From IMG/VR virus record IMGVR_UViG_3300033463_000025, positions 64,001 through 128,000 of that record: a stretch of DNA of 64,000 nucleotides; one strand, given 5' to 3'. The notes beneath the pieces are model-generated. The model saw nothing but the letters and a program-made list of their open reading frames with translations, ran no database searches and had not been told where the DNA came from. Source of the stretch: a virus (lineage: Duplodnaviria; Caudoviricetes). A program made the translations under genes and the position numbers. This document shows, piece after piece, positions 15,176 to 47,399 of this stretch (position 1 is the stretch's first letter; every line of letters starts with the position of its first letter).

Positions 15176-15442
15176 CTATGAAACCTTTTTATCAAGCCAT
15201 TTATATAGATTATCTATATCACGTTGGCACTCAATTCTAAACGATACTTCGTAATCGCCGTGCGTAACGCCTCTAAATGTTATACTCCACACTCTTCCAT
15301 CACGGCTGTCAAAGCAAGAGTCAATACATTTTATAGCTCTTCGGTGTCGTATGTGATTTATTTCATACATATGTTCACCCCAAGAGTTATTCTTTTTTAT
15401 GTATTCAAGTAATTTGCAGAATTGTTCAGGTGTCATTTCCAA
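15176..15442 (-). CDS. hypothetical protein
   Basis: 88-aa ORF coupled to the RT stop. Confidence 0.6.
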   Translation of the reverse strand: MEMTPEQFCKLLEYIKKNNSWGEHMYEINHIRHRRAIKCIDSCFDSRDGRVWSITFRGVTHGDYEVSFRIECQRDIDNLYKWLDKKVS

Positions 15443-16530
15443 TTCCTTTTCTTTTTCTTTGCTCTCTTTTCAATTTTTGATATTACAGATTTTTCTACCA
15501 ATTCAAAACCAGCAATATCATTGATTCTGTGGTCTAAGCGTATGCCTACCGTATGACAATCAGCACGAGAAATATGCTCACGCCATGAGTAATAAGATTG
15601 CCTAAACTTTTCAACGGTCAACCTACCTGCGGCGACAAGTTTTGCCATCTTTACATATTTTCTTTGTGCTGTTCGTTTCTTAGAATTATCTAACCTTCGT
15701 ACAATCACGCCGCTATTGGTGATATATGTATGGAATCCTAAGAACGCAATCCCGTTTTTAATAGGAAATATCTGTGTCTTATTATTTAGCTTTAATCCAA
15801 GTGATTCAATAAAGCTCGTAATGGCTTCTAAACAGTATTTAAGATATTCTAAATCGTGATGTACAAGATAGAAGTCATCCATATACCTGCCGAAATAAGC
15901 AATACCAAGTTCGCCAGTTATAAGTTTATCTAATCCATCCAAGTATAATACAGCAAACATCTGATTAACTTGATTGCCTAACGGCAAGCCAACATCTTCC
16001 GTGCTGTCAATAAACTTGTTACACAGCCACACAATTCCTTCGTCATATCCAAAATAGTATTCAACTATATCTTTCAATAAATCATGCGGTATGTTGTAGA
16101 AATATTTAGATATATCACACTTGAGAATATAGCCATTAAGACCGTGCCTTTTATAAAAGTTCTTTAAATGTTTGCTTAATTGATTAAGTGCTAAATCAAT
16201 TCCTTTACCGTCTTGCCCTGCGTAGTTATCTAATAAAAAGATTTCTTTTGAACGCAACTGCAAAACATTATCACACAGGCTATGCTGTACAACATTATCT
16301 TTAAAACCAGCGACTTTGATTTCACGCTCTTTAGGTTCAAAAACTAAAAAGGTATTATAAGCATCAAGTTCATACGTTCTGTTTTCAAGAAGTGATTTGA
16401 TAGTTAGTACACCATCTAACGCACTAATGTCAAACTTAGCTGTACTCTTCTTTTTACCTCTACCACATTTAGCATCCTTAAAAGCGTTATAAATGTTTTT
16501 AAAATCCGTTACTAATTCAAAATCTGTTAT
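15433..16530 (-). CDS. DGR reverse transcriptase (about 365 aa, probable ATA start)
   Basis: Frame open from 16530: ITDFELVTDFKNIY...FEPKEREI...FKDNVVQHSLCD...GKG...LKCDISKYF...GLPLGNQ...RYMDD...FLG. Confidence 0.95.
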   Translation of the reverse strand: MTDFELVTDFKNIYNAFKDAKCGRGKKKSTAKFDISALDGVLTIKSLLENRTYELDAYNTFLVFEPKEREIKVAGFKDNVVQHSLCDNVLQLRSKEIFLLDNYAGQDGKGIDLALNQLSKHLKNFYKRHGLNGYILKCDISKYFYNIPHDLLKDIVEYYFGYDEGIVWLCNKFIDSTEDVGLPLGNQVNQMFAVLYLDGLDKLITGELGIAYFGRYMDDFYLVHHDLEYLKYCLEAITSFIESLGLKLNNKTQIFPIKNGIAFLGFHTYITNSGVIVRRLDNSKKRTAQRKYVKMAKLVAAGRLTVEKFRQSYYSWREHISRADCHTVGIRLDHRINDIAGFELVEKSVISKIEKRAKKKKRNWK

Positions 16531-16639
16531 ACAGCATTACCTCTTTGCTTTTTATCCCTATTGGGAAGGGTCATACATTCTTTTGGCAGTGGTGCATTGA
16601 TTTCCGCCTTTTGCGTACTCTGTCGAGCTATCCACCAAT

Positions 16640-16708
16640 ACGGACGAAGCCCATTCTCGTTGTTGTAGTTGTTGTTGTTGATGTTACCGTGAGGCGACAC
16701 ACAAAGAG
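16640..16708 (-). repeat. DGR template repeat (TR)
   Basis: AAC-rich (CVSPHGNINNNNYNNENGLRP), between avd and RT; differs from both VRs only at adenines. Confidence 0.95.
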
Positions 16709-16735
16709 AAAGGTTACAACGCATAACCCATATAA

Positions 16736-17107
16736 CTACTTGTATTCTGACGTTCTCCACGCAATAGATAAGTGTTTTACATCTTTTACCAAACCACTCC
16801 AATATTCCGCAGACTTGTCTGACAACAATTTAATTTCCATTGAAAGCTCGATATAAAATAATAGTTCATCGCAATATGCAATAGCTTTAGTAATTGCTTC
16901 ACAACGCTCCGCTTTATTGCGTCTATTATCAATTCGATTTGCTTCTAACAGTGTATCAAATATATCTAAACACTTAATTTGTATTTTATCTCCGAGAGAG
17001 TGACGATATTTCTTAGGGTATCTATCGCTATTTGAAGTTATAATATATGTATGTTTCGCAAGCTCTTTGGCTTTAGAAACAACTATCGGTTCATCATTTC
17101 GTGACAT
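16736..17107 (-). CDS. avd: DGR accessory variability determinant (Avd-like four-helix bundle)
   Basis: 123-aa helical protein, YPKKYRHSLGDKI motif, canonical position between target and TR. Confidence 0.85.
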   Translation of the reverse strand: MSRNDEPIVVSKAKELAKHTYIITSNSDRYPKKYRHSLGDKIQIKCLDIFDTLLEANRIDNRRNKAERCEAITKAIAYCDELLFYIELSMEIKLLSDKSAEYWSGLVKDVKHLSIAWRTSEYK

Positions 17108-17730
17108 TAGTTCGTTGGAGATACAAAGATATTAGAGTCAAAGATACAAAACGGACGAAGCCCATACTCGCGGTTGTAGACGTAGTGGTCGATGTCACCG
17201 CGAGGCGACACACACTTTACCCAAGTGCTATCCTCATGCTTAGGTGTGCTAAACGCCGTAACCAGCCACCACCATTTATTGACTTTAAACTTATCAAGAA
17301 TATCGACATACCTACGATACAGGTTTGTGGTAAGCAAAGAAACCTTACGCTTAACCTTGCCATAATCCTTCAGACCATCATCAGAAGTAAGGTCAACCGT
17401 GTGTAAAACAAGATTATCTGCTCCGATAATACTCTCAATTTCTGTGGCGAAAACTTTACAAGCATCATCAGCAAGCGAGCCATCAAAGTTATTGTTCTTG
17501 TTGCTAAACTTTTGGCAATCCTTGAGAAGATTTTTACAGATTACTGCGGTTGTAAAAGCTGAATGTTCAAGTACAATAAACTCGTACTTACCAATCTTGA
17601 ATGTTCTACCTGCTTTCAGACTTCCTAACTGCACAGCACCAATACCGAAACTATCTTGGATTTCAGCTACTTGTGCATCGGTTAAGAAAATCTTTTGACC
17701 GTTAAGCTGAATAAAATTCTTGTTTGCCAT
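17107..17730 (-). CDS. DGR target protein 1 (DUF6273/C-type-lectin-like fold, tentative)
   Basis: WWWLVT...CVSPRG...YGLRPF C-terminus containing VR1; ATG 17730 with GGAGG RBS. Confidence 0.9.
   Translation of the reverse strand: MANKNFIQLNGQKIFLTDAQVAEIQDSFGIGAVQLGSLKAGRTFKIGKYEFIVLEHSAFTTAVICKNLLKDCQKFSNKNNNFDGSLADDACKVFATEIESIIGADNLVLHTVDLTSDDGLKDYGKVKRKVSLLTTNLYRRYVDILDKFKVNKWWWLVTAFSTPKHEDSTWVKCVSPRGDIDHYVYNREYGLRPFCIFDSNIFVSPTN
17151..17214 (-). repeat. DGR variable repeat VR1
   Basis: 64-nt match to TR with 10 mismatches, all at TR adenines. Confidence 0.95.
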
Positions 17731-17771
17731 TTTTGATTTCCTCCAACTATTATTAAAAATTTTCAATATTC

Positions 17772-18110
17772 TCATTTTTTGTTAGCCCTACAAATCGTTC
17801 CGTGGTTCATAAAACCCATAAATGTGTGGAATTGCAAGCTCTCAATCCAACCGTAATGTCTAATTGCATCGCGCAAATAAAACATTGTTTCGCCTTTAGC
17901 TTTTAGTGCTAAATATTCTTCAACACTTTTAATAGGTTCGCCTTTGTAATACCGTCTACGACTTTCTAAATATTCGTTATACTTTTTGTATTTTTCGCAC
18001 TCACGACAAATCTTCGCCTTTTCTCCAAAATCACGAGCATAATATCGCACATTTCCACTTTTATATTGATAGCTATATGCGTACTCGCATTTGTTACACG
18101 GTTTATTCAT
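17772..18110 (-). CDS. hypothetical protein
   Basis: 112-aa ORF with CxxC pairs. Confidence 0.65.
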   Translation of the reverse strand: MNKPCNKCEYAYSYQYKSGNVRYYARDFGEKAKICRECEKYKKYNEYLESRRRYYKGEPIKSVEEYLALKAKGETMFYLRDAIRHYGWIESLQFHTFMGFMNHGTICRANKK

Positions 18111-18111
18111 T

Positions 18112-18453
18112 TTACACCGCCACAGCTCTACTATAATAACTTGTTACTTTGTTATTCAGTGTCTTCAGATGTTCCTGCGTTTCATTATGTAACTTAAACC
18201 TGTTTACCATTTGGAGAACAAGTAAAATCTGTTCAGCGGTTAATCCGTTAAGGTTAATGGATTTGCCATTATTATTCTCTACGACCTTTTCATTTACTTT
18301 GTCTTTCAAAAGTAAAATCTGTGTTGGTGACAACTCGCAGTTTTCGTACTCTCCGAGTCTGTCATAAAGTTGCTTAATCGGAGGACAACTATGCGGAACA
18401 TTTGTACCCTTGCCAACATACCATTTATCTGTCAATCGGTTCATATAGCACAC
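18112..18453 (-). CDS. hypothetical protein
   Basis: RLT...RLGEYE pattern common in Firmicutes phages. Confidence 0.65.
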   Translation of the reverse strand: MCYMNRLTDKWYVGKGTNVPHSCPPIKQLYDRLGEYENCELSPTQILLLKDKVNEKVVENNNGKSINLNGLTAEQILLVLQMVNRFKLHNETQEHLKTLNNKVTSYYSRAVAV

Positions 18454-18459
18454 CCCTTA

Positions 18460-18935
18460 ATTAATGTTAGCCATAAATAAACGCTACAAAAGGACATCAT
18501 TCTCGTAACCTACTCTACGCTCAACTTCTTCGATAGATTGACGTAGCCACTCCATCTTAATAGTCCTTCTTCTTAAATATCTGCCCTCAGAAACAAGACC
18601 GACATCCTTTCGTAACGCTCCGCAAATCTTTTCGTGCTCTTGGTCGAGACCGCTGATGCACCAGTCGTCGGTAAGATTGCATTTTCGCCAAGCCAGTATT
18701 TTATTTCATCACATTTGCATTTCCCCGCATTAACGTAACGGTAGATGAAGTAACGCCGCACCTGTAACGGAACGAGAAACTTGTACCAAAAGTCCTCATA
18801 TATCATTTCATCCGTTCGGCTTCTCGGTTATCCTTTGGTACAGGATAATCAATTTAATATGATTACATATCAACTAAACAGCGGCACACAGTATGGCAAC
18901 TTTGTACTTGATAAAAACGCCGTAAAAATGATATA
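18460..18935 (-). ncRNA. candidate large structured ncRNA
   Basis: About 480 nt without a credible ORF, several complementary segments, near the tRNA cluster. Confidence 0.35.
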
Positions 18936-18943
18936 GTAAACAA

Positions 18944-19138
18944 CTAACCTGTGTAGTAATTTGTCTTTCCGAAAAAGTCTTTTGCTTGCGTGTTATAGCA
19001 TTGGCAAAAATTTTTCGGATTGCGTTTCATTTCTTCACCGCACTCTGGACACATATGCCCTTTGTCGGTATATTCGTGAACAGACATTATTACCTCTTCT
19101 TCATGCTCACATTTGGAGCAAATGAATTTATAAATCAT
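18944..19138 (-). CDS. FmdB-type zinc-ribbon protein
   Basis: MIYKFICSKC...CPECG. Confidence 0.8.
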   Translation of the reverse strand: MIYKFICSKCEHEEEVIMSVHEYTDKGHMCPECGEEMKRNPKNFCQCYNTQAKDFFGKTNYYTG

Positions 19139-19273
19139 TTTTATTCACCTATTGACTTATGTTATAAACTAAAAATATTATGTACTATATATTGTATTTT
19201 TCACATTGTTATACCACTATATATTGTGGTGTAATTGACAATGAAATCACAGTTTTATTAGCATTTTTAAATT

Positions 19274-19351
19274 TGGTGCATCGTCTGGGAGTCGAACCCA
19301 GCACCTGTTGATTATGAGTCAACTGCTCTAAACCTGATGAGCTAACGATAC
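19274..19351 (-). tRNA. tRNA with CAT anticodon (Ile2 or elongator Met)
   Basis: GTTGA-CTCATAA-TCAAC, GTTCGA, encoded CCA. Confidence 0.88.
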
Positions 19352-19451
19352 GTCTTTGTATCGGTCTATTCCCGATTGCCAACTATACACTCAATGAGTG
19401 CATAGATTTTAATGAAAAGAAGTAAGTAATGAATCGTTGTACGAAGACAAC

Positions 19452-19526
19452 TGGCTGGGGAGGCGAGAATCGAACTCACGAATAATCGGGTCAAAGCCGA
19501 GTGCCTTACCGCTTGGCTACTCCCCA
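19452..19526 (-). tRNA. tRNA-Gln(TTG)
   Basis: TGGGGAG acceptor, TCGG-CTTTGAC-CCGA, encoded CCA. Confidence 0.9.
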
Positions 19527-19644
19527 TCAAAGTGTGGTTACGCCACAACCGTTTTGTTACCTTAACTTTTGCCTTGTGCGAACCACACACTCCGATGCTG
19601 AAAATCATTAGAGTTTGTAATTTGAGCCATAAGAATTTCACTTA

Positions 19645-19757
19645 TGGGAGCGTAGGCTGGATTAGGCGGCACCTACCACGCCAGCGAATTTTGACTCTAC
19701 AGTTTTCAAACTGGTCTTTTTACAAGCCTTCTCGTTGAGCCGACTTAATACTACGCT
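19645..19757 (-). ncRNA. tRNA-like RNA (acceptor stem plus CCA, non-canonical interior)
   Basis: AGCGTAG/CTACGCT stem followed by C-CCA; adjacent GCTGG/CCAGC stem. Confidence 0.4.
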
Positions 19758-19976
19758 TTTTCACGTTCCACAATTTTATAATATAGGGGTCAACCTCTTT
19801 CGCAACCTTCCGATACTATCCACACCAAATACGAATTTGTACAGATTCGAGTTTGGCTTGCGCTTGTGGCAAGTTTCCCGTGGCTCTTACCCACACCTCA
19901 ATCTTACGTTTCTTATTATAGCACCATTAACAGCGTTTGTCAATAGCTCTATTGAATTATTTTATAAAATTCTTAA

Positions 19977-20360
19977 TCATTCATTTTGTCCAAGAATAAC
20001 AACAAAATCATCATTATCTTCAGCAAGTAAAGCCATCATATTTCTTGTATCGTCGTCGCAATAATCAACACGCTTTTGAATAATACTAAAACCACGCTCA
20101 AAATATGATTTGCTTGCCTCTAACTCTTCGCAAAACCAGTCCTCATAGTCTTCACCATAGGTATCAAATAAATACTTGCGATAGTCTTCTTCATTCTTAA
20201 ATATACAAGCATCTTCTGTTTCATAATAATACCTATTATTTTCAAAATGAACAAACAATTCGACCATCTTATCAAAATACTTTACGGCAGGATTTTCACG
20301 GTAAGCGATGATAAAACTACTGCTTGAGCTATTTGTTACATAGTCTGTTCTTATTTTCAT
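19977..20360 (-). CDS. 'TNSSSSSF' leader family protein 6
   Basis: MKIRTDYVTNSSSSSF. Confidence 0.85.
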   Translation of the reverse strand: MKIRTDYVTNSSSSSFIIAYRENPAVKYFDKMVELFVHFENNRYYYETEDACIFKNEEDYRKYLFDTYGEDYEDWFCEELEASKSYFERGFSIIQKRVDYCDDDTRNMMALLAEDNDDFVVILGQNE

Positions 20361-20380
20361 ACTATCCTCCGCGTGATTTC

Positions 20381-20932
20381 TTATACTTGTTTATTCCAAT
20401 CAGTAATAGCTTTCTCTCTACTATTTACGAATGAAGTTGTTTCCCAAGCATTACCACATTGACAATTAACCTTATACCCTTTAGATTCATAGCCAGAACC
20501 GTAATCGCCTTCTGATACATAGAGCCATGATGTATTGCATTTAGGGCAAGGTTTGAGCTGTTCTTTAGATTGATTTTTGATATTGCTATCGACAACGATT
20601 CCGACGCAATACAGCTCACCGTCTTCATAGATATTGAACTCGGCGTGTGGCATTTCTGTTTTATAACTCCATGCACAATCGCGTTCTTTATCGCACCATA
20701 CAGCTTCTATAGGTTTTGGCAATCTCTTATCCTCTATAATGCCACCACCAAAACAACCGTATTCGTCACGGAACGCTCCATAGATTTCACAGTTGTCATC
20801 ACTATAACCAGTTACGACAATAAAGCCCAAACTCTTTGCAAGCTCTTCTTCGGCAGGAGATATTTCATTACCGTATTCCCCACCGTTAAGCATTTTTGCA
20901 AAATCATATATAGTCATATCCATATCTATCAC
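20381..20932 (-). CDS. hypothetical protein with C-terminal Lar-like (restriction alleviation) zinc domain
   Basis: EQLKPCPKC...C.CG...EKAITDWN. Confidence 0.6.
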   Translation of the reverse strand: MIDMDMTIYDFAKMLNGGEYGNEISPAEEELAKSLGFIVVTGYSDDNCEIYGAFRDEYGCFGGGIIEDKRLPKPIEAVWCDKERDCAWSYKTEMPHAEFNIYEDGELYCVGIVVDSNIKNQSKEQLKPCPKCNTSWLYVSEGDYGSGYESKGYKVNCQCGNAWETTSFVNSREKAITDWNKQV

Positions 20933-21585
20933 CCCATATGGTTACAGTACAACGATGATACTTTAGCAAGTGATTCTCTTACATAATCGGGAATATAGCA
21001 ACCGTCTTCACCCCAAACAGCATAGTGACCGAATATGCTATATATTACATCTCTGCCTAATTTTCCTTTTATGCTACTGCACGTTAGCTTTTTCGTGTTA
21101 AACCTATAATCTTTTACACAGCAAATATCAGGGTAACACCCACCATCATAGCCGTTATCAAGACAAGGTAAATACCAACCTGCAACGCTGTCCGCCGTGT
21201 CTGTGTCTTTGCTCAAATCGTGAATACTGAAGTCAATATACCATTTCCAATTTTTACCATGCAAAGGCTCAAACTTTTTACGGAAATATGATATGTATTC
21301 ATCATACGTTTCGCATGAATCTATCCAGCTATCATCACACTCTTCGTAAAACAAATCGTATGTTGATATACCATATTTATTTTTAATTCTCGTTTCGTTC
21401 TCATATTTCCAATTCCAATTATCCGCTTTACTGCCATACTTGCTTCTTATCAAATTTGACTTTTCACGATGCTCTCTAAACTTTTCGCGGATAAAAGAAT
21501 AAATATCATCAATAGTCCAGTCATCGCGGCTAATTACGAAAGAAGAACTACTCGAATTTGTTACAAAGTCTGTACGAATTTTCAT
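20929..21585 (-). CDS. 'TNSSSSSF' leader family protein 5
   Basis: MKIRTDFVTNSSSSSF. Confidence 0.85.
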   Translation of the reverse strand: MKIRTDFVTNSSSSSFVISRDDWTIDDIYSFIREKFREHREKSNLIRSKYGSKADNWNWKYENETRIKNKYGISTYDLFYEECDDSWIDSCETYDEYISYFRKKFEPLHGKNWKWYIDFSIHDLSKDTDTADSVAGWYLPCLDNGYDGGCYPDICCVKDYRFNTKKLTCSSIKGKLGRDVIYSIFGHYAVWGEDGCYIPDYVRESLAKVSSLYCNHMG

Positions 21586-21968
21586 TAGCAACCACCCACT
21601 CCTATTACGAGTTTATCATTGTTAATACGGAAGGTATCTAAAAACATATCAAAGTCATTGAGGTAATCATCAGTGTCAATCGTTCTTACATAAGCGATAA
21701 AGTCACCAATCTCAACATTCCAATATCCATTATCAGAAGAAACATAATCAAGAACAATATCCATTAATTCTTCTTTATCTTTCAACCTATCTTTTAACGA
21801 ATATGGCAAATGAGCAAAATAACGCTTCATAGCTTTAACATATCTGCTATACCAATCTTTATCAGATTCAATAAGCTCACGCAGTTCATCACGAGTTACA
21901 TCTTTGCGTTTTGCGATAATGAACGATGAGCTACTTGAATTTGTTACGAAATCAGTTCTAATCTTCAT
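21585..21968 (-). CDS. 'TNSSSSSF' leader family protein 4
   Basis: MKIRTDFVTNSSSSSF. Confidence 0.85.
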   Translation of the reverse strand: MKIRTDFVTNSSSSSFIIAKRKDVTRDELRELIESDKDWYSRYVKAMKRYFAHLPYSLKDRLKDKEELMDIVLDYVSSDNGYWNVEIGDFIAYVRTIDTDDYLNDFDMFLDTFRINNDKLVIGVGGC

Positions 21969-22281
21969 AGAGAGAACCCCTTTCTTCTGGCTTTAGTAAT
22001 ATCCATTTTACAAAAGAAAAAATTGCAACAATTAAAAGTAACAATCCAAATACCAATACCATAAATGCGTCTAATGGAAGAAAAACTATCTGAAACACAA
22101 CTCCGACAATTATTCTTGGTATCAAACGATACTTTTTATTTGATATAAAATAATATGATGATGGTAATGCAGGTGAAATAAATGTATCAATAAAAGGCGA
22201 GTGAGTCAGTTTATATATCATCATCCCGAAAAAAGCGGGAACATAAATAATAATGATTAATTCAAACAAAGTCATCAACAT
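21958..22281 (-). CDS. membrane protein
   Basis: Two to three hydrophobic helices. Confidence 0.7.
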   Translation of the reverse strand: MLMTLFELIIIIYVPAFFGMMIYKLTHSPFIDTFISPALPSSYYFISNKKYRLIPRIIVGVVFQIVFLPLDAFMVLVFGLLLLIVAIFSFVKWILLKPEERGSLYED

Positions 22282-22284
22282 ACC

Positions 22285-24064: not shown

Positions 24065-24368
24065 TATCTTCAACCACCATCTTAGAACGTATGCTGTACA
24101 ATCCGCATAGAGCCATTTCAAGTTTTTCAATTCTGCCACGCAAAGACCTAATCGTTTCATCTAAGTCTTTGCCATCAGCCGAATAATAATATCCACGATG
24201 ACAAGAGCAAACCGCAAAACCGTCACTTCTTGCTTCGTTTATATATTGACGAACAGTAAACTCGCTAAGTGAAAATCTGTCACCTAATTCACGACCTATG
24301 ATAGATTTGTCCTTTTCGTTGGCGTAAGTGATAATATAATTAATCAAAGGCATATATCTTTTCATCAT
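24057..24368 (-). CDS. winged-helix protein
   Basis: GRELGDRFSLSEFTVRQYINEAR...RGYYY; start moved to 24368. Confidence 0.7.
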   Translation of the reverse strand: MMKRYMPLINYIITYANEKDKSIIGRELGDRFSLSEFTVRQYINEARSDGFAVCSCHRGYYYSADGKDLDETIRSLRGRIEKLEMALCGLYSIRSKMVVEDNE

Positions 24369-25426
24369 ACACAATCCTTTTCTGCATTGTTGCAAAGTAC
24401 AATTTCTCTGCAAATCGGACAGCCACCAGCACAGCAACCGCGCTTCGGGCAATTCGGACAAGAGTTAGCCAGAGAATATCTAAACTTGTTAAATACTTCT
24501 CCATCCCATGCCTCTTGAATTGTGTGGTTTCGTAGATTAACAAACCATTTAGGATTCTGATTGCCAAAACTACAGGGCATGGCGTTCATATGAGCATCAA
24601 TATACATCGAGAAGCGTCCGCCCTCGCAATAGTCGATACTGTCAAGATTGATTTTTGACGTATTGTTTACGATGCCTGCACAAGAGCAAGAATCAAAACC
24701 GATTTTGAAGTCAAATTTTCCATTGTCTATAATATCGAAAAACTCTTTCACTTTCGGATTGTCGGGCGTTAAGATGTTTTCAATCTTACCTAAACCGATA
24801 GGCTTATAAAGCAGAAAGACAATAGCGTTAATACCCTTATGGAAGCCGTTATTCTTTAAGCGGTCGATAGCATCATCAATACTCTTTGCAGATAAGACGT
24901 AATGGATGTTAGTCTTTACACCAGCCTCGATAAGAAGATTCAATGCTCTTTCGGTATAATCAGCATTGTGCTCAGATACGGCGACCGCGCCACAATACTG
25001 TTTACAAAGCTCCGCCTTTTCTTTTGTAAAAGCGATACCAGATGTAGTAAAGTTCGGTACAACTCCATACTGACGAGAGAGCTTTAAGATTTCTTCAAAG
25101 TGTTCGTGCGTATCAGGGTCGCCAGCTCCACCGAGAGCTACTTGGAACAGCTTGCCTTCTCCCTGTTTCATTATATCTTCGTAATCATCAAGGCTCATAT
25201 TCTCGCCCGTTCTGTCACAAGCCTTTTGGTAACAATCCACTTTACACTTGTGAGCACAAACGCATCTTTCCATTATGCCAATGTCAATAAGCTGTGGGAA
25301 GTTCCGCATAAACGGGTCAACGCCTGTGTCTTTTCCATCCTCAATAACACCTGTTCTCATATAAAAACCTGTGTTCGGGTCAAACTGTTCTACAAACTTG
25401 TTTTTTCTGTCAATATAAACGTTCAT
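24365..25426 (-). CDS. radical SAM protein with SPASM domain
   Basis: CVCAHKCKVDCYQ, ALGGAGDP, FTTSG; C-terminal CEGG...PCSF...CPNC...CAGGCP. Confidence 0.9.
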   Translation of the reverse strand: MNVYIDRKNKFVEQFDPNTGFYMRTGVIEDGKDTGVDPFMRNFPQLIDIGIMERCVCAHKCKVDCYQKACDRTGENMSLDDYEDIMKQGEGKLFQVALGGAGDPDTHEHFEEILKLSRQYGVVPNFTTSGIAFTKEKAELCKQYCGAVAVSEHNADYTERALNLLIEAGVKTNIHYVLSAKSIDDAIDRLKNNGFHKGINAIVFLLYKPIGLGKIENILTPDNPKVKEFFDIIDNGKFDFKIGFDSCSCAGIVNNTSKINLDSIDYCEGGRFSMYIDAHMNAMPCSFGNQNPKWFVNLRNHTIQEAWDGEVFNKFRYSLANSCPNCPKRGCCAGGCPICREIVLCNNAEKDCV

Positions 25427-27975: not shown

Positions 27976-28904
27976 TTAGCTACCCCCTCGGCATAACTGA
28001 ACACATCATTGACAGCTTTAATATGAATTTGCGGGTCAGTAACATTCGCGTTCTGACATCCTGCCTGATATGCCATAGTGATAAGTTCACGCAGGTCGTT
28101 GTTATCAAGCAACATCATGGGCGAGTCTGATTCGGGTGAATAGGTTTTATCACCAAAGATATAATCCTTCCAAAAGTCACCCATATCAGAAGTGTACTTC
28201 TCTGTAGCCTCACGGTCAACGCCTGTATAGCGTCTTGTTACAGCTTCACTTGAATGATTAAAGCCACGGCTTACAATCTGCATAGCATTTGGGTCTGTCT
28301 TATGAAGCTCAATGCTGGTTTTACCAAACGTCTTTCGGGAGCTGTGTGTGCCTAAATTACGTTCGATGTTCAGCTTCTTCATAACGTCCTTCAGCGCATA
28401 CATAGCACCAGAGTAGGACAACACAGAACCTTTGTGCGTTCCAGTAAACTGATAGAACACTTCGCGCTTGTAATCGTCGGTCGCTGGGTCATAACCAACA
28501 GCACAGAGATACTTGCCAATAGCAATCTTGACAGCCTCATTGATTTTTGGGGAAGCATACTTGCCTGTTTTCTGCTCTTTGATAGCCTTCAAGTTTTCTC
28601 TGAAATTACCCGTTTGCGGATTAAAGAAATCTTCCCACGTCAGCTTGCACATATCAGAAAAGCGTCGTGCAAGGTTATAAGACGTAACAAACAGAAGATA
28701 GTGAATCCACTTGTTATTCTGTTCAAAGTATTCTACCACACGCTTAGTGTCTTCGATAGATAACTCGTGAACCTCACAGCTTTTTCCTTTACACTTACTT
28801 GCTTTCTTAGCAACTGGCGTTTCTTCATGCTGAGGGAACAGCTCAATAACATTCCCTCTTGTAACTGTATTCGGATTATAATTTACAATAGCTGGTGCTG
28901 GCAT
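27972..28904 (-). CDS. tyrosine recombinase/integrase
   Basis: Complete catalytic set: RFSD, EQKTGK, HSSRK, HSS, RY; ATG 28904 with AAGGAG RBS. Confidence 0.92.
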   Translation of the reverse strand: MPAPAIVNYNPNTVTRGNVIELFPQHEETPVAKKASKCKGKSCEVHELSIEDTKRVVEYFEQNNKWIHYLLFVTSYNLARRFSDMCKLTWEDFFNPQTGNFRENLKAIKEQKTGKYASPKINEAVKIAIGKYLCAVGYDPATDDYKREVFYQFTGTHKGSVLSYSGAMYALKDVMKKLNIERNLGTHSSRKTFGKTSIELHKTDPNAMQIVSRGFNHSSEAVTRRYTGVDREATEKYTSDMGDFWKDYIFGDKTYSPESDSPMMLLDNNDLRELITMAYQAGCQNANVTDPQIHIKAVNDVFSYAEGVAK

Positions 28905-40542: not shown

Positions 40543-40574
40543 ATAATCGCCCCTTTGCTCTGGTTATACCACCA

Positions 40575-41078
40575 TTATACCACAGCTTTTGAAGCCTTGC
40601 AAGGATTGTATTGATTATATTCTGTAGGGTTTTTGACGCTTTCTCGAACAGCTTTCATAATATGATTCGGTGTGATTCCAAAATCTTCACAGCCCTGAAC
40701 AATTCCGTAGAAGTAAGTCGCCGCAGGCGGAGCGATACCCTTTCGCTCCTTAGTCATAACATAAACGGTAGCTTCTACGAGTTCGCCATCTTCAGTAATG
40801 ACGTTCACTTTCTCGCGGGTATAGTATTTCGGATAACCTTCATACATATCAAGCCTTCCCCACTCTGACGGGTTAATGTCCCAAAGAGCTACAGGCAGAA
40901 CATCCTTGTCGTCGCCTGTCGGGATAATATCAGCGTGAATATTGAATACCAACTTGTAACCTTTGAGATATGCTTTACCAATGGGCACAGATAACGGGCA
41001 ACGCCATCTCATCTGCTCTAAATTCATATTCGAGCCATACGCAACATAATAATTTTTCTTTGTCTTTTTCTTAGCCAT
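40575..41078 (-). CDS. gamma-glutamylcyclotransferase (AIG2-like) family protein
   Basis: YVAYGSNMN...RCP...LDMYEGYP..Y. Confidence 0.9.
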   Translation of the reverse strand: MAKKKTKKNYYVAYGSNMNLEQMRWRCPLSVPIGKAYLKGYKLVFNIHADIIPTGDDKDVLPVALWDINPSEWGRLDMYEGYPKYYTREKVNVITEDGELVEATVYVMTKERKGIAPPAATYFYGIVQGCEDFGITPNHIMKAVRESVKNPTEYNQYNPCKASKAVV

Positions 41079-41111
41079 AATCTATTCCTCCATTTCTTTT
41101 AATACAAATAC

Positions 41112-41423
41112 TTAATTTGACGCAAGATTTTCTTCAATCTTTGCGATACATTCTTCTATGGACTTATAAAAGCCCTTGCAACTTGTTTCTTTTAAATTGT
41201 TATCTTTTGTAAGCAAATAATCAACGATTTCAAAATGACTAAATTCGCCATCATATTTGATTCGGCAAGGTCTAACTATATGATAATAACCTTTCTGGTT
41301 CATATAGTAATAGAATTTACCTTCAGCAGATTTATAATACTTATTGATTGTAAATCTGGTTCTTTTTCCAGTCATACGGTCAATAGTTTCATGCGCTTCT
41401 TGTGAATAACTCGGCAACATCAT
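41112..41423 (-). CDS. hypothetical protein
   Basis: 103-aa ORF, GGAGG RBS. Confidence 0.65.
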   Translation of the reverse strand: MMLPSYSQEAHETIDRMTGKRTRFTINKYYKSAEGKFYYYMNQKGYYHIVRPCRIKYDGEFSHFEIVDYLLTKDNNLKETSCKGFYKSIEECIAKIEENLASN

Positions 41424-41427
41424 TGTG

Positions 41428-41745
41428 CTATACCTCCTTAATTGTTATATCATATTTTCCCCATTCATTACTTTTACTTGCTATAATGGATAATCTTTTC
41501 AGCTTGGTAATATTGCCAGCATCATCAAATTCGACGATAGAGAATTTATCCTCTAAATAATAATCCCCCATCGTTTGTAACAGCTTATTTAACGATGCTT
41601 TAGCTGTCCCAATCTTACTAAACAACTTTTCGGGTTTTAACAATTCTGCTTTCTCCCAAAACACTTGATACTTATTCCAACCGTTTATTAAATAATAAGT
41701 TCCTTCTGGTGATTCACTCTTTATTGTGTACCTCATATTTTCCAA
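41428..41745 (-). CDS. hypothetical protein
   Basis: TTG start, AAGGAG RBS, own promoter. Confidence 0.7.
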   Translation of the reverse strand: MENMRYTIKSESPEGTYYLINGWNKYQVFWEKAELLKPEKLFSKIGTAKASLNKLLQTMGDYYLEDKFSIVEFDDAGNITKLKRLSIIASKSNEWGKYDITIKEV

Positions 41746-41982
41746 CTCCTTTTTGTAGTTTGTCTATATTATAGCGTGTTGCAATAATTTTGTCAAGTTA
41801 TTTCACTGTATCTATTGATTTTTAATATTGTGTTTTTCTGTTCTGCCTGCACGAAGAATTATTGTTTTGCAAAATTATACTTTTCTGTTAATGGGTAGCA
41901 GAAATTTTCCATTTCAAAAAATAATATAACTAAAATAAAACCGTCGTTTCATCAACAAACGACGGTCATATTTTCCATCTTA

Positions 41983-43449
41983 TTAGGCGGCAATAACGGC
42001 TTCTTTTAACTTGAACAGATAGTCGTTAAGTGTTGTTGAGCCTTTTGATTTTCCGCGTCTGAAATAGGTATAGCCAACTCCACCGTTATGATTAAAGTCA
42101 ACCTCGTGCAACTTGTCATTAACAAAACCTTGCACCTTCAGCGGAACAGAAATATCATACTTGCGGAACAGATAATTGAAGATAGAATACTCATTTGCTT
42201 TGTAATCAAATTCTCCATCATCAGAAGTCTTTTTATAAATAGTGATATATTTATTACGGAGCGTTCCGCCGTTCTTTATCGTTTCAATAGCTTCTGCGAT
42301 TTCTTCCTCGGACAGTCTTACACCGTCCTCAAATTCAGTCTTTCTTTTTCTTTCCGCTTCTGCTTTTCTCTCGGCTCTCTTATCCTCTTGCGCCTGTCTG
42401 TAATTCTTTCGAGCCTCCCAAGCTCCTGCCTCAAGGTCGGGGAAGGCAACTTTAATAAATTCAACATGGACAAGATGCAACCATTTATTATTAGCAATCA
42501 TATCTTCATACCAAGCGCGAAGGCAAGGTAATGAGTTAATATCTGACGTAGTGCGTTCAACTGTTTCTTTCACAGTACGGTCGGCGTATTCTTTATAAAT
42601 CCACATACCAGTTTCATACTCGTCAAAGATAACATAAATGTCACACATTTTATTCCAGCCGTCACTTTCAGCCTCACCAACATAAAGTGTATCGCTGATT
42701 TTACGGACTTTCTTCTTATGAATAACAGCCTTGTTTCCATCTCTGCCGAACATAATCAGCCGTCGAGTTTCAGCCTTGCTCTTAACGTCGCTCAGCTTTG
42801 TATCAGGCGTTACCTCTACAACAGGTTCTTCGGGAGTTTCTACAACTTCCGCTTTCGGGTCGTAGTTTTCAACGTCTTCCAGCGTGAACACAATAGCGTT
42901 GGTGTTACAATCATCATAGCGCATCGGGCACAGAATAGCGGATATACCGTTCTTAGTGTTGTATTCTGTATCGCAGAGCACAATAGGCTTCAGCGGCTTA
43001 CCAACACAAATAAACGCTTCCTTTTCGCCTATGATTTCCAGCAGGTCAAGAACATACTCTGCGTTCATATAAGCATCGCCAATATGAAGGACAATGCGCG
43101 AATATTTATTAGTACGCTCGCGCTTCTTAGTCGTCAGGAATTTTTTATACTTTGCCTTGTTTACTTGATAGGTCGTAAACTTTTCTGTATCGTCGGCAAA
43201 GTCGGTCAGTCTGTCGTGCATCAGCTTTGCTAATGATTGTACCCTGGATTTGCCGTTAGCGTCGAGGCTTTCATATGTTGCGAAGTCGTCATCGCAGGTC
43301 AGATTTGACAGAGCTGATTTAACCAATCTAAAACCATCTGTAATATAGGCTTCGTTTTCGTAAATCAAAATCTGTCTGAATACTTTGGTCTTATCTGTTT
43401 TGTTGTTGTGTAAAATCCTTGTGTACGCGGCTTTGTTTAACTTTTTCAT
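41983..43449 (-). CDS. multidomain hypothetical protein, N-terminus resembles beta sliding-clamp motifs
   Basis: ITDGFRLV...MNAEYVLDLL...KPIVL...ILCPMR. Confidence 0.6.
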   Translation of the reverse strand: MKKLNKAAYTRILHNNKTDKTKVFRQILIYENEAYITDGFRLVKSALSNLTCDDDFATYESLDANGKSRVQSLAKLMHDRLTDFADDTEKFTTYQVNKAKYKKFLTTKKRERTNKYSRIVLHIGDAYMNAEYVLDLLEIIGEKEAFICVGKPLKPIVLCDTEYNTKNGISAILCPMRYDDCNTNAIVFTLEDVENYDPKAEVVETPEEPVVEVTPDTKLSDVKSKAETRRLIMFGRDGNKAVIHKKKVRKISDTLYVGEAESDGWNKMCDIYVIFDEYETGMWIYKEYADRTVKETVERTTSDINSLPCLRAWYEDMIANNKWLHLVHVEFIKVAFPDLEAGAWEARKNYRQAQEDKRAERKAEAERKRKTEFEDGVRLSEEEIAEAIETIKNGGTLRNKYITIYKKTSDDGEFDYKANEYSIFNYLFRKYDISVPLKVQGFVNDKLHEVDFNHNGGVGYTYFRRGKSKGSTTLNDYLFKLKEAVIAA

Positions 43450-43837
43450 GGTGTAAACCTCCTTATATTCTGTGGGTCTTTTGACAATATAAATATACCA
43501 CAGCTCGCGGTTTATGTCAAGTTATTTTATATTATTTATTACTTTTTAATATTGACAAATTTTGAATTGAATTATGGATTTGCCAGTCGTCAAGGATTCC
43601 TTGACAGCTAAATCTTTATTTTACAAAATCAAGATTTCTTGTAATTTGTAAAGTGGATAGAGCTGTAACAAAATAGCTTTTTACTATTTTTCAAAATTAA
43701 TTTTTTCTGCTGTGTCAGAACAGAAAAATTGAATATTTAAAAATAAGTTATTATCGGCATATGCGGATATTAAGTTTTGAAATATTAACTTTTTCTGTTG
43801 TGGAAGGCAAAACGAAAACCGCCTTTCGGCGGTTCGT

Positions 43838-44065
43838 TTAAATCTTTCGTTTTTCCAAGTATTTTGATATTGAATTATTTAATCCCTTTAAACATTCATC
43901 ACATAAAACCATAAGTCGCGGACTGTGTACTCTTCCAATCCAAATTTCATTCAATGAGTCAACTCTCTTTTGTGGTAATCCACTGTCAAAAGTAATACCT
44001 CCACAATGTTCACAAGTTCCGATAAGTTCACTCGCTTCTTTGACTTTCATTTCTATATTATCCAT
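43838..44065 (-). CDS. small zinc-finger protein
   Basis: CEHC...LCDEC; own TTTACA-17-TATAAT promoter. Confidence 0.65.
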   Translation of the reverse strand: MDNIEMKVKEASELIGTCEHCGGITFDSGLPQKRVDSLNEIWIGRVHSPRLMVLCDECLKGLNNSISKYLEKRKI

Positions 44066-44140
44066 TAGTCGCCCTCCAATAATACTTTATAAAATTATTA
44101 TACCAAATTGTTATGATGTTGTAAAGCTAATAAAAAAAAG

Positions 44141-44353
44141 TTAGTTAATATACCTACCAACATTTGAAAGCACTTTGCGTAACTCTTCCGAAAAGTAACC
44201 ATAAACTTTTGTTTTTAGTTCCATCATTTCTTTGTAAGTAATTACTTCGTTTATATAAAGAATATCAAGCTGTACTAAGTTTGCTCTGGTCGTATGCTGA
44301 AGGATTCCCAAGTCACCGTTATAAGAAAACTGAACATTAATCAAATCGGTCAT
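44141..44353 (-). CDS. hypothetical protein
   Basis: ATG 44353 with GAGG RBS. Confidence 0.55.
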   Translation of the reverse strand: MTDLINVQFSYNGDLGILQHTTRANLVQLDILYINEVITYKEMMELKTKVYGYFSEELRKVLSNVGRYIN

Positions 44354-44354
44354 A

Positions 44355-44654
44355 TTAAAAACCTCGCTTTTCTTTGTAATAAAGTCTATCAAGTGCTTCA
44401 ATGATTATCTTTGATTTATCTTTTGCATAATTACAAAGTTCTGTAAAAACGCTTCCACAATCGTTCATCATCGCAACAATATTGCTACACAAATTAAACT
44501 GAGCTATATAATAGCTTGCATTAAGATAACAAGTTTCAATGCGCTTGCCGTTTGACGGTTTATTATTGATAATTTCCATCACCTCGGCATATGCAAAATC
44601 AATACATTCTTTTGCTTTATTGGTGAAGTATTCAATGTTAAAAGTATTATCCAT
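44355..44654 (-). CDS. hypothetical protein
   Basis: 99-aa ORF, GGAGG RBS. Confidence 0.65.
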   Translation of the reverse strand: MDNTFNIEYFTNKAKECIDFAYAEVMEIINNKPSNGKRIETCYLNASYYIAQFNLCSNIVAMMNDCGSVFTELCNYAKDKSKIIIEALDRLYYKEKRGF

Positions 44655-44670
44655 TATTTTTAACCTCCTA

Positions 44671-44943
44671 TCATTTGCACTCGTCTAAGAAATTATATTT
44701 TGATAACTTGCCGAAGTGAGTTAAATATTCATCATTCATAAACGCGGCAACTTCTCTAAATTCAACTTCTTCAATAAGGTCTGATACAAAGTAACAGAAC
44801 ATATCTTTGCTGTTATGCTGATGCAGTAAACCATAAGTGATTATGTTTTCTACTGTAGCTCTGAACATGAAATTTTCCAAACCGTTATATTCGCTTTGCA
44901 GGTATTCCATAAAACCTTGTTTGTTAAAACCTCTGTCATTCAT
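44671..44943 (-). CDS. hypothetical protein
   Basis: ATG 44943 after the cassette leader. Confidence 0.7.
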   Translation of the reverse strand: MNDRGFNKQGFMEYLQSEYNGLENFMFRATVENIITYGLLHQHNSKDMFCYFVSDLIEEVEFREVAAFMNDEYLTHFGKLSKYNFLDECK

Positions 44944-45164
44944 TGTAATTACTCCTTTCATTTCTTTGTCTTTTGACGTTTTAATTATATCAAATCGGGC
45001 GGATGTTGTCAAGATATTTTACGTTGTATATTATTTTTTAATATTAAATTTTTCTGTCAAGTTTTCCATCTACTATACACATTATCTTTGTTTTTCAAAA
45101 TCAAAGTTTCTTGTTGAGGCAAAAGAAAACCGTCAAGCCGAAGCCTGACGGTTAGCAATTACTG

Positions 45165-45548
45165 TTACTGGACAAGTAAAGGACAATGGTTTTTATCTCC
45201 AATCCAAACGATTACTTTTCCTGTTTCGGTATTTCTTTCTGCAAAGCAATAACTAAAGCCATCAGCACAGTAAATCCATTCCTTGTCTTTTGTTTTCTTT
45301 GCGGTATTTATAGTTTCACGATAACATTCATAGTTTCCATTTTTCCAAAAGTATTCAACGCAAATAGAAGCTGTGTTTTTATCTGATTTTAATTCGATAA
45401 ATTTAATATTGATTTTATAATTGTTCATCTTTTTATGTGATTCTATGACGATTTTTCTAATTAAATCTACATCTTTCGGATAATTTTTCATGCTGATAAC
45501 CTCCAATCTTTTTATACTAAGTCGGATTGCCCGTATTTCTTTTTCCAT
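45165..45548 (-). CDS. hypothetical protein (start probably at MKNYPK)
   Basis: ORF in operon. Confidence 0.6.
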   Translation of the reverse strand: MEKEIRAIRLSIKRLEVISMKNYPKDVDLIRKIVIESHKKMNNYKINIKFIELKSDKNTASICVEYFWKNGNYECYRETINTAKKTKDKEWIYCADGFSYCFAERNTETGKVIVWIGDKNHCPLLVQ

Positions 45549-45730
45549 TCCTCACACTGTTTTTCAAGAACAGCCCTGTCATCGCTTCCGCCTCTGATTT
45601 CATCATCGCCTGCAACTCTTTCTCCACCAGGGAAGCGGTAACACGGGAAGCCGTGGTCAACTTCTGTGAATATCCCAATATACTCACAGCATCTAACATA
45701 TTTCGGATATTTCATTTTGATAACCTCCAA
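45512..45730 (-). CDS. hypothetical protein
   Basis: GGAGG RBS before MKYPK. Confidence 0.55.
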   Translation of the reverse strand: MEVIKMKYPKYVRCCEYIGIFTEVDHGFPCYRFPGGERVAGDDEIRGGSDDRAVLEKQCEEWKKKYGQSDLV

Positions 45731-46201
45731 TCAATACCAATTATTAGCGTCAGCGTCTTTTAAAAATCTTTCCTTTGCTCTCTTGAACGCATCTATTGTG
45801 TCTTTTCCATAGCCTGCCTCGGTCAGATATTCAGCATACCCATACCCATTCACAAACTCACATTCTTTGAAGCAACTGCAAACGTCATAGTCGCCCTGAT
45901 AGTTTATATGGTATTCATGGTTTGCCATTTCAGAATAGAAAGCACCCTCGGCAAAGTCAGCGTCCTTCATAAGCTCATCAAGCGGGTCTTCCTTATGAAG
46001 CCAAGCCCTAATAATCGGCGCATCTTTCTTGAGATAGAAGCCGCCTCCGCTAATCTTATAGATTTTGTCCGTGTCGTGAATTGTTAAGCCGCGCTCATTC
46101 ATCGCCTTTTCAAACTGCTTATTGCTAAAAGCAAAGAATATCGGAAGCTCGTTAAATTCCTTTTGTCTCGCAGTTTTGTAGTCGTCGTAAGTAATAGTCA
46201 T
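45731..46201 (-). CDS. hypothetical protein
   Basis: FFAFSNKQFE...GGGFY...YSEMANHEY; first gene of a cassette. Confidence 0.8.
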   Translation of the reverse strand: MTITYDDYKTARQKEFNELPIFFAFSNKQFEKAMNERGLTIHDTDKIYKISGGGFYLKKDAPIIRAWLHKEDPLDELMKDADFAEGAFYSEMANHEYHINYQGDYDVCSCFKECEFVNGYGYAEYLTEAGYGKDTIDAFKRAKERFLKDADANNWY

Positions 46202-46535
46202 CAGATTTTCCTCCTTTATTATATTGTTGTATCTTTTGACAATATAAGTATAGCATTTTCCTGTTGTGGTGTCAAGATATTTTCCTTCGTTTATTAGTTT
46301 TTAATATTAGTAAAATCTGTTTCTGATTATCCTCTTTGCACTGCATTGTTCAGTTCGGTTTGGTGTAATGCAAGCTAAACTGAATAATCCGATATTGCAA
46401 AATCATAATTTAGTAAATCGTAATTTTGCAAAATTGAGTTTTTCTGTTTGGCTAATACAGAAAAACTTGATATTGAAAATTAAAGTCGTAAAGAAAAAAA
46501 CCGCCTGTTACAGCGGATTTTTTCTATTATACTTT

Positions 46536-46748
46536 TTACCATTCTTCAAATTTTCGTTTTGGTCTCTCGTCATAAAACAAGGTGTAGCCGTTAATATATG
46601 GCTCAAATGTTTTCCGTTCTTTTACGTTTGTCCATTCAATAGTTTCTGTTACACCGTCAGCAAACTTTAAGTCAGCAATAGGTGTTACGTTGTACTCATT
46701 AAAATAAATTCTTACTGCAACAATATGGCGCATTAAAGTGTTATTCAT
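46536..46748 (-). CDS. hypothetical protein
   Basis: 70-aa ORF followed by a terminator. Confidence 0.55.
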   Translation of the reverse strand: MNNTLMRHIVAVRIYFNEYNVTPIADLKFADGVTETIEWTNVKERKTFEPYINGYTLFYDERPKRKFEEW

Positions 46749-46778
46749 AACTTAATTACCCCTTTTATTTTTTTTGGT

Positions 46779-47399
46779 TTAGTCAATAGGAGATACAAAG
46801 ATAGTAGATTTGAAGATAAAAAACGGACGAAGCCCAATCACGCCGTAGTAGCTGACGTAGTAGATGCTACCGAGAGGCGACACACAAAGAGCTAATGAAC
46901 TATCATAGTGAGGTAGTGTGCTCCAAGCCGTTGCAAGCCACCACCAAATATCTAACTTATATTTGTCAAAAATTTCTGTGTTTGCGCGGTAGAAGTCAAG
47001 AGTCGCAAGGCTGATTCGTGAAGTCATAGTGCCAAATACCTTTAACCCATCAAGAGTAGTCAGGTCTGTGGTAAATTCTAAAACATTATCATCACCAACA
47101 GCGGCAATTACCTGCGGCAGATATTCTTCCTTGAGAAGCGTTAATGCGTGACTCTTGCTAAAGTCGTTTGTGTTGTCGTCAAACTTTTCATCAGTATAAA
47201 CTGCGTCTTTAGTCATAACAACAGCTTTTCCATCGCTCTCGGAGAACTTAATAAATGTGATTCCGCCAATCTCAAAAGTGCTTCCATCTTCGATTTTTGA
47301 AAGCTGGACGGTTTTTCTGTTTGCTTTGTTTACGAGGCTCAGAAGGTTTGCTCTTTCCTCTTCAGTCAGGTTATCCATATTGATTGTGATAGTTTCCAT
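46779..47399 (-). CDS. DGR target protein 2 (remote paralog of 17107..17730)
   Basis: DLTTLDGLK, WWWLAT, CVSPLG...GLRPF; contains VR2; ATG 47399 with AAGGAG RBS. Confidence 0.9.
   Translation of the reverse strand: METITINMDNLTEEERANLLSLVNKANRKTVQLSKIEDGSTFEIGGITFIKFSESDGKAVVMTKDAVYTDEKFDDNTNDFSKSHALTLLKEEYLPQVIAAVGDDNVLEFTTDLTTLDGLKVFGTMTSRISLATLDFYRANTEIFDKYKLDIWWWLATAWSTLPHYDSSLALCVSPLGSIYYVSYYGVIGLRPFFIFKSTIFVSPID
46823..46891 (-). repeat. DGR variable repeat VR2
   Basis: 69-nt match to TR with 12 mismatches, all at TR adenines. Confidence 0.95.

Follow-up and report, generated by a model that had tools for sequence, protein, structure and literature searches.

We analysed a 64,000-nucleotide stretch of DNA (hereafter the window; positions 64,001 to 128,000 of IMG/VR record IMGVR_UViG_3300033463_000025) from a tailed phage of the class Caudoviricetes, and we focus here on a diversity-generating retroelement (DGR) that it encodes. 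The element is a genuine DGR of the known BPP-1 type: a 63-nt template repeat (TR) is matched by two variable repeats (VRs), one in a target gene beside the reverse transcriptase (RT) gene and one in a paralogous target gene about 30 kb away, and both VRs differ from the TR at TR adenines exclusively. The account that we prefer as a whole, and hold with moderate confidence, is a genuine BPP-1-type DGR with an RT made at a low level and with two small lectin targets that probably act off the virion. The source contig (143,758 bp, about 37% GC) has overlapping ends and is therefore a complete circular phage genome, that of a gut or rumen phage.

From established knowledge of DGRs, the TR would be transcribed and copied by the RT together with Avd into cDNA, with errors at adenines, and this cDNA would then take the place of the VR, which forms the 3' end of each target gene. 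Here, the VR would be recognised through its GC-rich 3' end (GGGCTTCGTCCG) and through a conserved element of 34 nt, which comes next in the VRs and is missing after the TR. All parts of the system (target 1, avd, TR, RT and target 2) lie on the minus strand. The gene order target1-avd-TR-RT, proposed in an earlier sequence-only reading of the window, is confirmed by the family matches of the avd product (phrog_3206) and of the RT (phrog_1423, 4.6e-91; RVT_1, 2e-13). The Pfam match of avd to PF22296 bAvd (7.5e-7, 30 bits) falls below the 40-bit gathering cut-off, and the stop codon of target 1 overlaps the avd start as TAATG.

Template and variable repeats

Repeat finding on the window groups TR, VR1 and VR2 unprompted as one family (D11). 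Counted position by position over the 63-nt core, which holds 20 adenines, all 10 differences between VR1 and TR and all 12 between VR2 and TR fall at TR adenines, and the 43 non-A positions are identical in both VRs (43/43 in each). Were mismatches random across bases, the chance of such an A-only pattern would be about (1/3)^10 for VR1 and (1/3)^12 for VR2. The base after the core, an A in the TR, is T in each of the two VRs, and counting it gives 11 and 13 differences; the homology between VR2 and TR also reaches 6 nt beyond the core on the 5' side. Repeat finding, alignment and position count bear out the counts of 10 and 12 in the sequence-only reading, and the peptides that it quoted for the three repeats are correct. 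The search for further targets that it had proposed was run as a whole-genome scan with the TR adenines replaced by N, and this returned three copies only, with no fourth in the 143,758-bp genome.

The two targets are 41% identical in protein, in keeping with their earlier description as paralogs, one of them 30 kb from the RT. Before the VR, their DNA is 47% identical overall and 32% identical at third positions, which amounts to saturation. Both VRs, on the other hand, carry the lineage's own TR base at every non-A site, for example GGGCTTCGTCCG versus GGCGTCCGCCCG in relatives. Because the non-A sites of the VRs agree completely with the TR of this lineage while the flanking paralog DNA is saturated, VR2, 30 kb from the RT, must have received its sequence from this TR at a time when the lineage had already parted from every relative sampled, and neither VR is a frozen duplicate. 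An explanation of the three repeats as ordinary paralogous sequence (a frozen duplicate or chance) rather than as DGR products is highly improbable. The targets are paralogs, and some similarity at their 3' ends is to be expected; however, the third copy is non-coding and sits between avd and the RT gene, all 22 core mismatches (22/22) are at TR adenines amid identical non-A sites and saturated third positions elsewhere, and the same A-only pattern is seen in 19 of 20 related IMG/VR cassettes examined; these results refute the explanation.

Right at the GC-rich end of each VR begins an AT-rich stretch of 34 nt that is lacking from the TR. That is, a GC-rich 12-mer is common to the TR and the VRs, and the 34-nt stretch (consensus TTTTGTATCTTAAAATCTAATATCTTTGTATC in target-1 orthologs) then follows in the VRs alone. 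The orthologous proteins are about 60% identical. In the rest of the gene, an average of 56% of sequences agree in the codon of a conserved residue, versus 98% over the ten codons scored behind the VR (residues 193-203; Mann-Whitney p=1.7e-7). Orthologs of the target-2 type show similar codon conservation after the VR, and the two paralogs of the window agree at 75% of third positions in this stretch versus 32% elsewhere. Because the TR cannot homogenise this stretch, the constraint acts on the DNA itself, which fits a predicted recognition signal resembling the initiation of mutagenic homing (IMH) element.

The sequence-only reading had noticed a 15-mer, TATCTTTGTATCTCC, after both VRs and lacking after the TR, and had put it forward as an IMH-like element. 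The observation was correct: the 15-mer occurs exactly twice in the window (0.03 expected), once after each VR. The idea of a cis element after the VR likewise gains support, but the real stretch is 34 nt long and the 15-mer is its distal part. As a stand-alone IMH the 15-mer was rejected: it closes a longer conserved stretch on the distal side and, in addition, encodes a conserved IFVS strand. As a separate observation, the GC-rich 3' end of the VRs (ATGGGCTTCGTCCGT; window 17151-17165 and 46824-46836) can fold into a weak 5-6-bp hairpin followed by a T run, and a scanner flags it as terminator-like within both target genes; the TR has the same bases without the T run.

Relatives and activity in nature

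A search of 5.8 billion proteins gave more than 1,300 target homologs with a length of about 202 aa; apart from itself, target 1 has its best match at 67% identity. The same cassette is present in 27 IMG/VR viral contigs and in 5 contigs of Clostridia metagenome-assembled genomes (MAGs; Congzhengia, Ca. Ornithomonoglobus and others). Most of these relatives have two tandem targets, one of the target-1 type and one of the target-2 type, directly upstream of avd, and the A-only matches in the 19 of 20 IMG/VR cassettes examined lead mostly to two targets; in one cassette (L022), the second VR is 6.4 kb away. The best match of target 2 is to the second of the tandem copies in the relatives; the ancestral state is therefore one of two targets, one of which has moved in the window genome.

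Direct evidence for activity of the cassette family in nature comes from two related phages of one IMG/VR sample (L024 and L026; sample 3300045988), which are 99.7% identical over 6.5 kb and have 15 of their 18 differences inside the 67-nt VR. Five further pairs, each from different samples (L003/L004, L010/L011, L013/L014, L002/L005 and L007/L008), are 100% identical including the VRs and are uninformative on turnover.

Target proteins

Both targets are small stand-alone C-type-lectin proteins (DUF6273, phrog_9958). They match phrog_9958 at 6e-34 (target 1) and 2e-36 (target 2), whereas their scores against Pfam DUF6273 (PF19789) are sub-threshold (15.4 and 13.7 bits versus a cut-off of 23.5). 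A further family, phrog_10993 ('Hoc-like head decoration'), matches them through the VR region only. Structure prediction, also suggested in the sequence-only reading, was run with AlphaFold2 (AF2) on a 40-sequence alignment and gave a C-type-lectin fold with a predicted local distance difference test (pLDDT) score of 94. Foldseek matched this model to 9qa6 (the T. ramosa IgA peptidase's N-terminal domain, named DUF6273 in PMC12402451), to 8q4e, to many C-type lectins and to the C-terminal domain of Legionella Lcl; the matches in BFVD are DUF6273 phage proteins, and a profile search of Protein Data Bank (PDB) sequences gave 9qa6 again. The PDB sequence and fold searches gave no match to Mtd.

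In the AF2 model, the VR (residues 173-193) covers strands 180-184 and 188-191, and the roughly 12 variable residues (177-189) are on that beta-hairpin, a location that has been reported for this target class (PMC10743442). Ahead of the lectin domain there is only a short hairpin and a helix (residues 1-30), and the model has no attachment and trimerisation domains of the Mtd type (beta-prism/beta-sandwich). The N-terminal 45 residues are missing from many homologs. A tblastn search with the targets reached phage nd4 (tgt2), FP_Toutatis (gp24) and phage Lelie with 83-90% query coverage, and the targets are members of the class of small second DGR targets that has been published with these proteins (nd4_tgt2, FP_Toutatis gp24 and the small target of Lelie).

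Gene neighbourhood and location of action

More than 50 loci have homologs of SSB and of methyltransferases alongside the target family and on its strand. In FP_Toutatis, gp24 is flanked by DNA methyltransferases, a replication initiator and antiterminator Q, and in nd4 the target lies before SSB and DnaC. In the window, the targets have as neighbours SSB, a metallophosphoesterase, tRNAs and small genes without an assigned family, and both lie outside any recognisable structural module, as the sequence-only reading had stated. It had also given target 2 its own promoter within a promoter array, and the site is a strong sigma70-type consensus match. Promoters of this kind cluster on the minus strand between 24 and 56 kb of the window and are rare in the plus-strand arms.

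Two side observations concern this setting. A motif, (C)TATTGAnTTATGTTATAA, is present in 13-16 copies genome-wide on both strands (window 2097, 7737, 9474, 19150, 19950, 26172, 28970, 38023 and 47464). It forms the -10 region of the target-2 promoter, unlike the surrounding array, which is of the type TTGACA-17-TATAAT with an upstream AATATTAAAAA, and may mark a second promoter class or an operator. In about 50 loci of nd4-like viral contigs (L029-L080), a small DUF6273 target is followed in fixed order by a 262-aa homolog, a 227-aa homolog and SSB, sometimes with a C5 methyltransferase; there is no RT within 6 kb, and the VR-equivalent residues differ between loci. The small targets of these loci are remote ones, their RT lying in another part of the respective genome.

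The phage genome also has a second, separate DGR outside the window (genome 20369-30400, plus strand; locus L083 1370-11401). Its order is a target of 2,455 aa with DUF6273 at its end and the VR at genome 27569-27707, a gene of 266 aa that takes the Avd position and has no Pfam or PHROG match, a 136-nt TR (28657-28792) and a 442-aa RT about 30% identical to the RT of the window. The TR and VR, found by blastn, show 11 A-specific differences and a 3-nt indel. From its size and strand alone, we take the 2,455-aa protein to be fibre-like. Because the TR of this second DGR differs, its RT is unlikely to act in trans on VR1 and VR2.

Gene neighbourhood makes an intracellular, non-virion role for the small targets plausible. 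We favour an early role of this kind because of the neighbourhood, the promoter unit of target 2, the promoter cluster and the separate second DGR; that the targets are soluble ligand binders from early/replication-module transcripts, acting off the virion (inside infected cells or once these have lysed) rather than as the main receptor-binding protein, is a view to which we give an even chance. The sequence-only reading had gone further, to intracellular binders, perhaps for anti-defence or host takeover. The anti-defence idea was overstated for a proposal based on gene neighbourhood only, and the lack of a signal peptide that it cited does not discriminate, as virion proteins lack one too.

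Weighing the alternatives

The RT keeps its motifs ILKCDISKYF, YMDD and LGNQVNQ, the last being the form that the DGR signature ([I/L/V]GxxxSQ-type) takes in this clade (LGNQINQ, LGNQISQ or LGNQSSQ in relatives), and its frame is open over 365 codons in DNA of 36-40% GC. The first 90 codons contain no ATG, GTG or TTG, and the program's open reading frame (ORF) listing begins the RT at an internal TTG. At the homologous start, 19 of the 20 IMG/VR cassettes have ATG ACC GAT TTT, 7-8 nt after a ribosome-binding site (RBS) of the GGAG type, the exception being L027; the aligned start is also ATG in 8 MAG relatives, 5 of which carry the same cassette. The window has ATA ACA GAT TTT behind AAAGAGG, with the spacing seen in relatives. 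An ATG at 16537 was rejected as the RT start, being out of frame (MLYNRF, then a stop) and only 1-2 nt from the RBS. Because the RT start codon is ATA, the term 'intact' that the sequence-only reading used for the DGR is too strong, although its view of a genuine DGR stands and the catalytic motifs are kept. The sequence is best read as that of an RT made at a low level, or else very recently silenced. We infer that some RT is still made from the near-cognate ATA start and that DGR RTs need not be abundant, and we lean slightly towards a DGR that is active at the present day.

Several results weigh against this account of a working DGR with early, off-virion targets. The RT start position is ATA where 27 relatives, including all with an intact RT, have ATG, and AUA initiation in E. 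coli reaches 1-2% of that from AUG (10.1101/063800). The RT departs from its relatives at 11 of 85 positions invariant among them, including P92L, G114A and D165G. No near-identical genome was found in which present-day variation at VR1 and VR2 would show: the TR pattern (A to N), scanned over metagenome contigs and viral contigs, gave 0 matches, and a DNA search of a phage collection gave one short 70% match only. As to the targets, a PHROG scan of ten neighbours of the two genes returned nothing except the metallophosphoesterase, and promoters and terminators are known here as consensus matches only. We know of no DGR C-lectin target of known role that does not bind outside the cell. The authors of the nd4 and Toutatis studies favour a receptor-binding role (PMC10743442; 10.1101/2024.10.15.618418).

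Two other explanations can be drawn from these points. The DGR may have died recently, the change from ATG to ATA having ended RT synthesis and left VR1 and VR2 as fixed records of past retrohoming; we think this possible, if rather doubtful. The ATA at a conserved start with no in-frame ATG, GTG or TTG for 90 codons speaks for it, as do the 11 changed residues and the existence of a decayed relative, L027 (IMGVR_UViG_3300032038_002225, 4775-6910), whose cassette has no RT ATG, an RT cut to 230 aa and no A-only VR. The changed residues may, however, be early decay or merely the depth of the lineage, the window RT being the deepest branch and at most 63% identical to any relative. Against a dead element stand the 365 codons still open in AT-rich DNA with catalytic motifs intact, an RBS and spacing to ATA as in relatives, and a TR, spacer, avd, both VRs and both post-VR elements without damage or any non-A mismatch; moreover, initiation at 1-2% might suffice if abundant RT is not needed. 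The other explanation leaves the DGR at work but puts the two small lectins on the virion, as accessory proteins for receptor binding or adhesion (Mtd-like) whose genes simply happen to lie outside the structural module. Their short N-terminal hairpin-helix would attach them to tail or capsid, and the DGR would serve attachment to host or environment as in BPP-1.

We give this virion role somewhat less than an even chance. It has in its favour the C-type-lectin fold with the VR on a surface hairpin, as in Mtd and tentaclins; the match of the VR region to phrog_10993; BFVD neighbours that include proteins annotated as receptor-binding or tail; the role preferred for nd4_tgt2 and Toutatis gp24 by the authors just cited; and the extracellular location of cellular DUF6273, for example in the secreted IgA peptidase (PMC12402451). 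On the other hand, the targets have no fibre-attachment domain comparable to that of Mtd, and the N-terminal region that would have to dock is missing from many homologs. Even in distant phages, the family consistently keeps company with replication and methyltransferase genes of its own strand. Target 2 is behind a host-type promoter in a promoter array, and a separate DGR is already present for the giant DUF6273-tipped protein.

Comparison with known systems

The DGR that Bordetella phage BPP-1 carries has the order mtd-avd-TR-brt, adenine-specific mutagenesis and a VR at the 3' end of a C-lectin target; its VR has a GC-rich end, followed by VR-specific sequence missing from the TR (IMH versus IMH*). 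The cassette of the window is alike in gene order, A-specific mutagenesis, a 3' VR in a C-lectin target, and a GC-rich VR end with VR-specific sequence after it. It differs in its TR (63 nt here, more than 100 nt there), in having two targets, in the lack of the trimerisation and attachment domains of Mtd, and in having a weak 6-bp hairpin within the VR end in place of a GC-rich cruciform downstream.

Closer in their targets are the two-target DGRs that Baykov et al. (2023, PMC10743442) described for nd4 and nd12, two gut phages, where nd4_tgt2 is a small DUF6273-only second target with a C-lectin fold. This protein is 30% identical to target 1 over 90% of the length of target 1 and shares with it a single DUF6273/C-lectin domain, a C-terminal VR on a beta-hairpin, the use of one TR for two targets and a place among replication genes (SSB, DnaC). 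However, the other nd4 target is a large 'tentaclin' (DUF6273 with Ig domains), whereas both targets of the window cassette are small paralogs, and in relatives of this cassette the small targets sit directly upstream of avd. The nd4 authors assume an Mtd-like receptor-binding role (PMC10743442). In FP_Toutatis, a phage of Faecalibacterium (Egorov et al. 2024, 10.1101/2024.10.15.618418), gp24 is again a small DUF6273 protein and a second, remote target, 17.5 kb from the TR; it is 27% identical to target 1 and is surrounded by genes for methyltransferase, replication initiator and antiterminator. The Toutatis genome is that of a temperate phage, 55 kb in size, and its first target is Hoc-like, whereas here the genome is 144 kb, the distance 30 kb and a second DGR independent. 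Small targets of Lelie and CP11 have also been published (PMC11792537).

The Quimbyvirus DGR (Benler et al. 2021, PMC8008677) has two C-lectin targets, the distal one by four methyltransferases, and its authors proposed a non-structural role in defence or counter-defence. The likeness is one of layout: one DGR, two C-lectin targets of which one is distant from the structural module, and an RT with an unusual reading-frame problem that is yet apparently active (PMC8008677). Quimbyvirus differs in its Bacteroidetes host, in having one target in the tail module (here neither is) and in an RT anomaly of frameshifts rather than a non-AUG start. DGRs with two targets or a remote target, small DUF6273 targets in replication modules and a non-structural target by methyltransferases, in a defence island, are therefore already published, and the idea of the sequence-only reading was not new in this respect (PMC10743442, 10.1101/2024.10.15.618418, PMC11792537, PMC8008677). 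New here are the 34-nt post-VR element with synonymous sites conserved across relatives, the consistent place of the target family beside SSB and methyltransferase genes, and the second DGR outside the window with its 2,455-aa target.

Implications

Phage DGRs are usually read as tropism switches, and the published class of small lectin-fold targets in early/replication modules is growing. This genome separates two jobs physically: one DGR is for the 2,455-aa DUF6273-tipped protein and the other has two small targets only, one of which, 30 kb from the RT, forms a unit of its own from promoter to terminator. Should the small targets act in the cell, DGRs would be a diversifier for phage counter-defence and not a host-range device only. 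As a speculation that we consider rather unlikely, gut Clostridia phages (and by homology those of the nd4, Toutatis and Lelie type) might use the DGR to keep a population-wide library of small cytoplasmic early lectin-fold binders, each neutralising or sensing some host factor that evolves fast, for example a defence protein. Such a library would form a counter-defence arm resembling antibodies, encoded beside anti-restriction methyltransferases and apart from the DGR that serves the fibre-like protein.

Two further consequences concern detection and target choice. In this clade, the 34-nt post-VR element offers a concrete candidate for the signal by which targets are recognised. At least one published pipeline requires a repeat alignment of 90 nt (PMC11792537), and with a TR of 63 nt such cassettes may therefore be under-counted.

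Features and minor observations

Table 1. Features of the DGR and its surroundings (positions in the window)
Feature	Position	Strand	Remarks
SSB gene	14394..14846	-	PF00436, 3.5e-27; just downstream of the cassette; neighbourhood with the target family recurs in 38 related loci
DGR reverse transcriptase	15433..16530	-	365 codons open; ATA (16530-16528) at the start position
TR-RT spacer	16531..16639	-	109 nt; sequence kept across relatives; RBS AAAGAGG
TR core	16640..16702	-	63 nt, 20 adenines, AAC-rich; encodes CVSPHGNINNNNYNNENGLRP
avd (accessory variability determinant)	16736..17107	-	123 aa; phrog_3206 'Avd protein of DGR', 1.2e-21
Target 1	17107..17730	-	207 aa, stand-alone DUF6273 / C-type-lectin protein; ATG 17730 behind GGAGG
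Post-VR1 element (IMH-like candidate)	17117..17150	-	synonymous sites kept in relatives; 15-mer inside at 17117-17131
VR1	17151..17213	-	63 nt; 10 differences from TR, each at a TR adenine
Terminator-like hairpin	46501..46516	-	after target 2 and a 70-aa ORF (46536-46748); consensus match only
Target 2	46779..47399	-	206-aa paralog of target 1; ortholog of the second tandem target of relatives
Post-VR2 element (IMH-like candidate)	46789..46822	-	15-mer inside at 46789-46803
VR2	46823..46885	-	63 nt; 12 differences from TR, each at a TR adenine
Target-2 promoter-like site	47446..47474	-	TTGACT-17-TATAAT, TG extension; 11/12; consensus match only
Terminator-like hairpin	47653..47670	-	ends the upstream gene and isolates the target-2 unit; consensus match only

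A small hairpin of the TR-RT spacer is maintained in the window genome through a compensatory GC-to-CG change. At the other end of the RT gene, an 88-aa ORF (15176-15442) starts 10 nt before the RT stop codon, which makes translational coupling of the two probable; neither Pfam nor a tblastn search of the IMG/VR loci gave a match for it. Pfam and PHROG searches of this ORF, of the 70-aa ORF after target 2 and of the plus-strand arm were uninformative.

The decayed cassette L027 adjoins a homolog (63% identity) of the window gene at 24365-25426. Same-strand tRNA genes bracket the DGR operon (window 14918-15156 and 19274-19526), with Pro and Leu just downstream of the RT and Met and Gln upstream, and another tRNA-Met lies at window 59404-59479.

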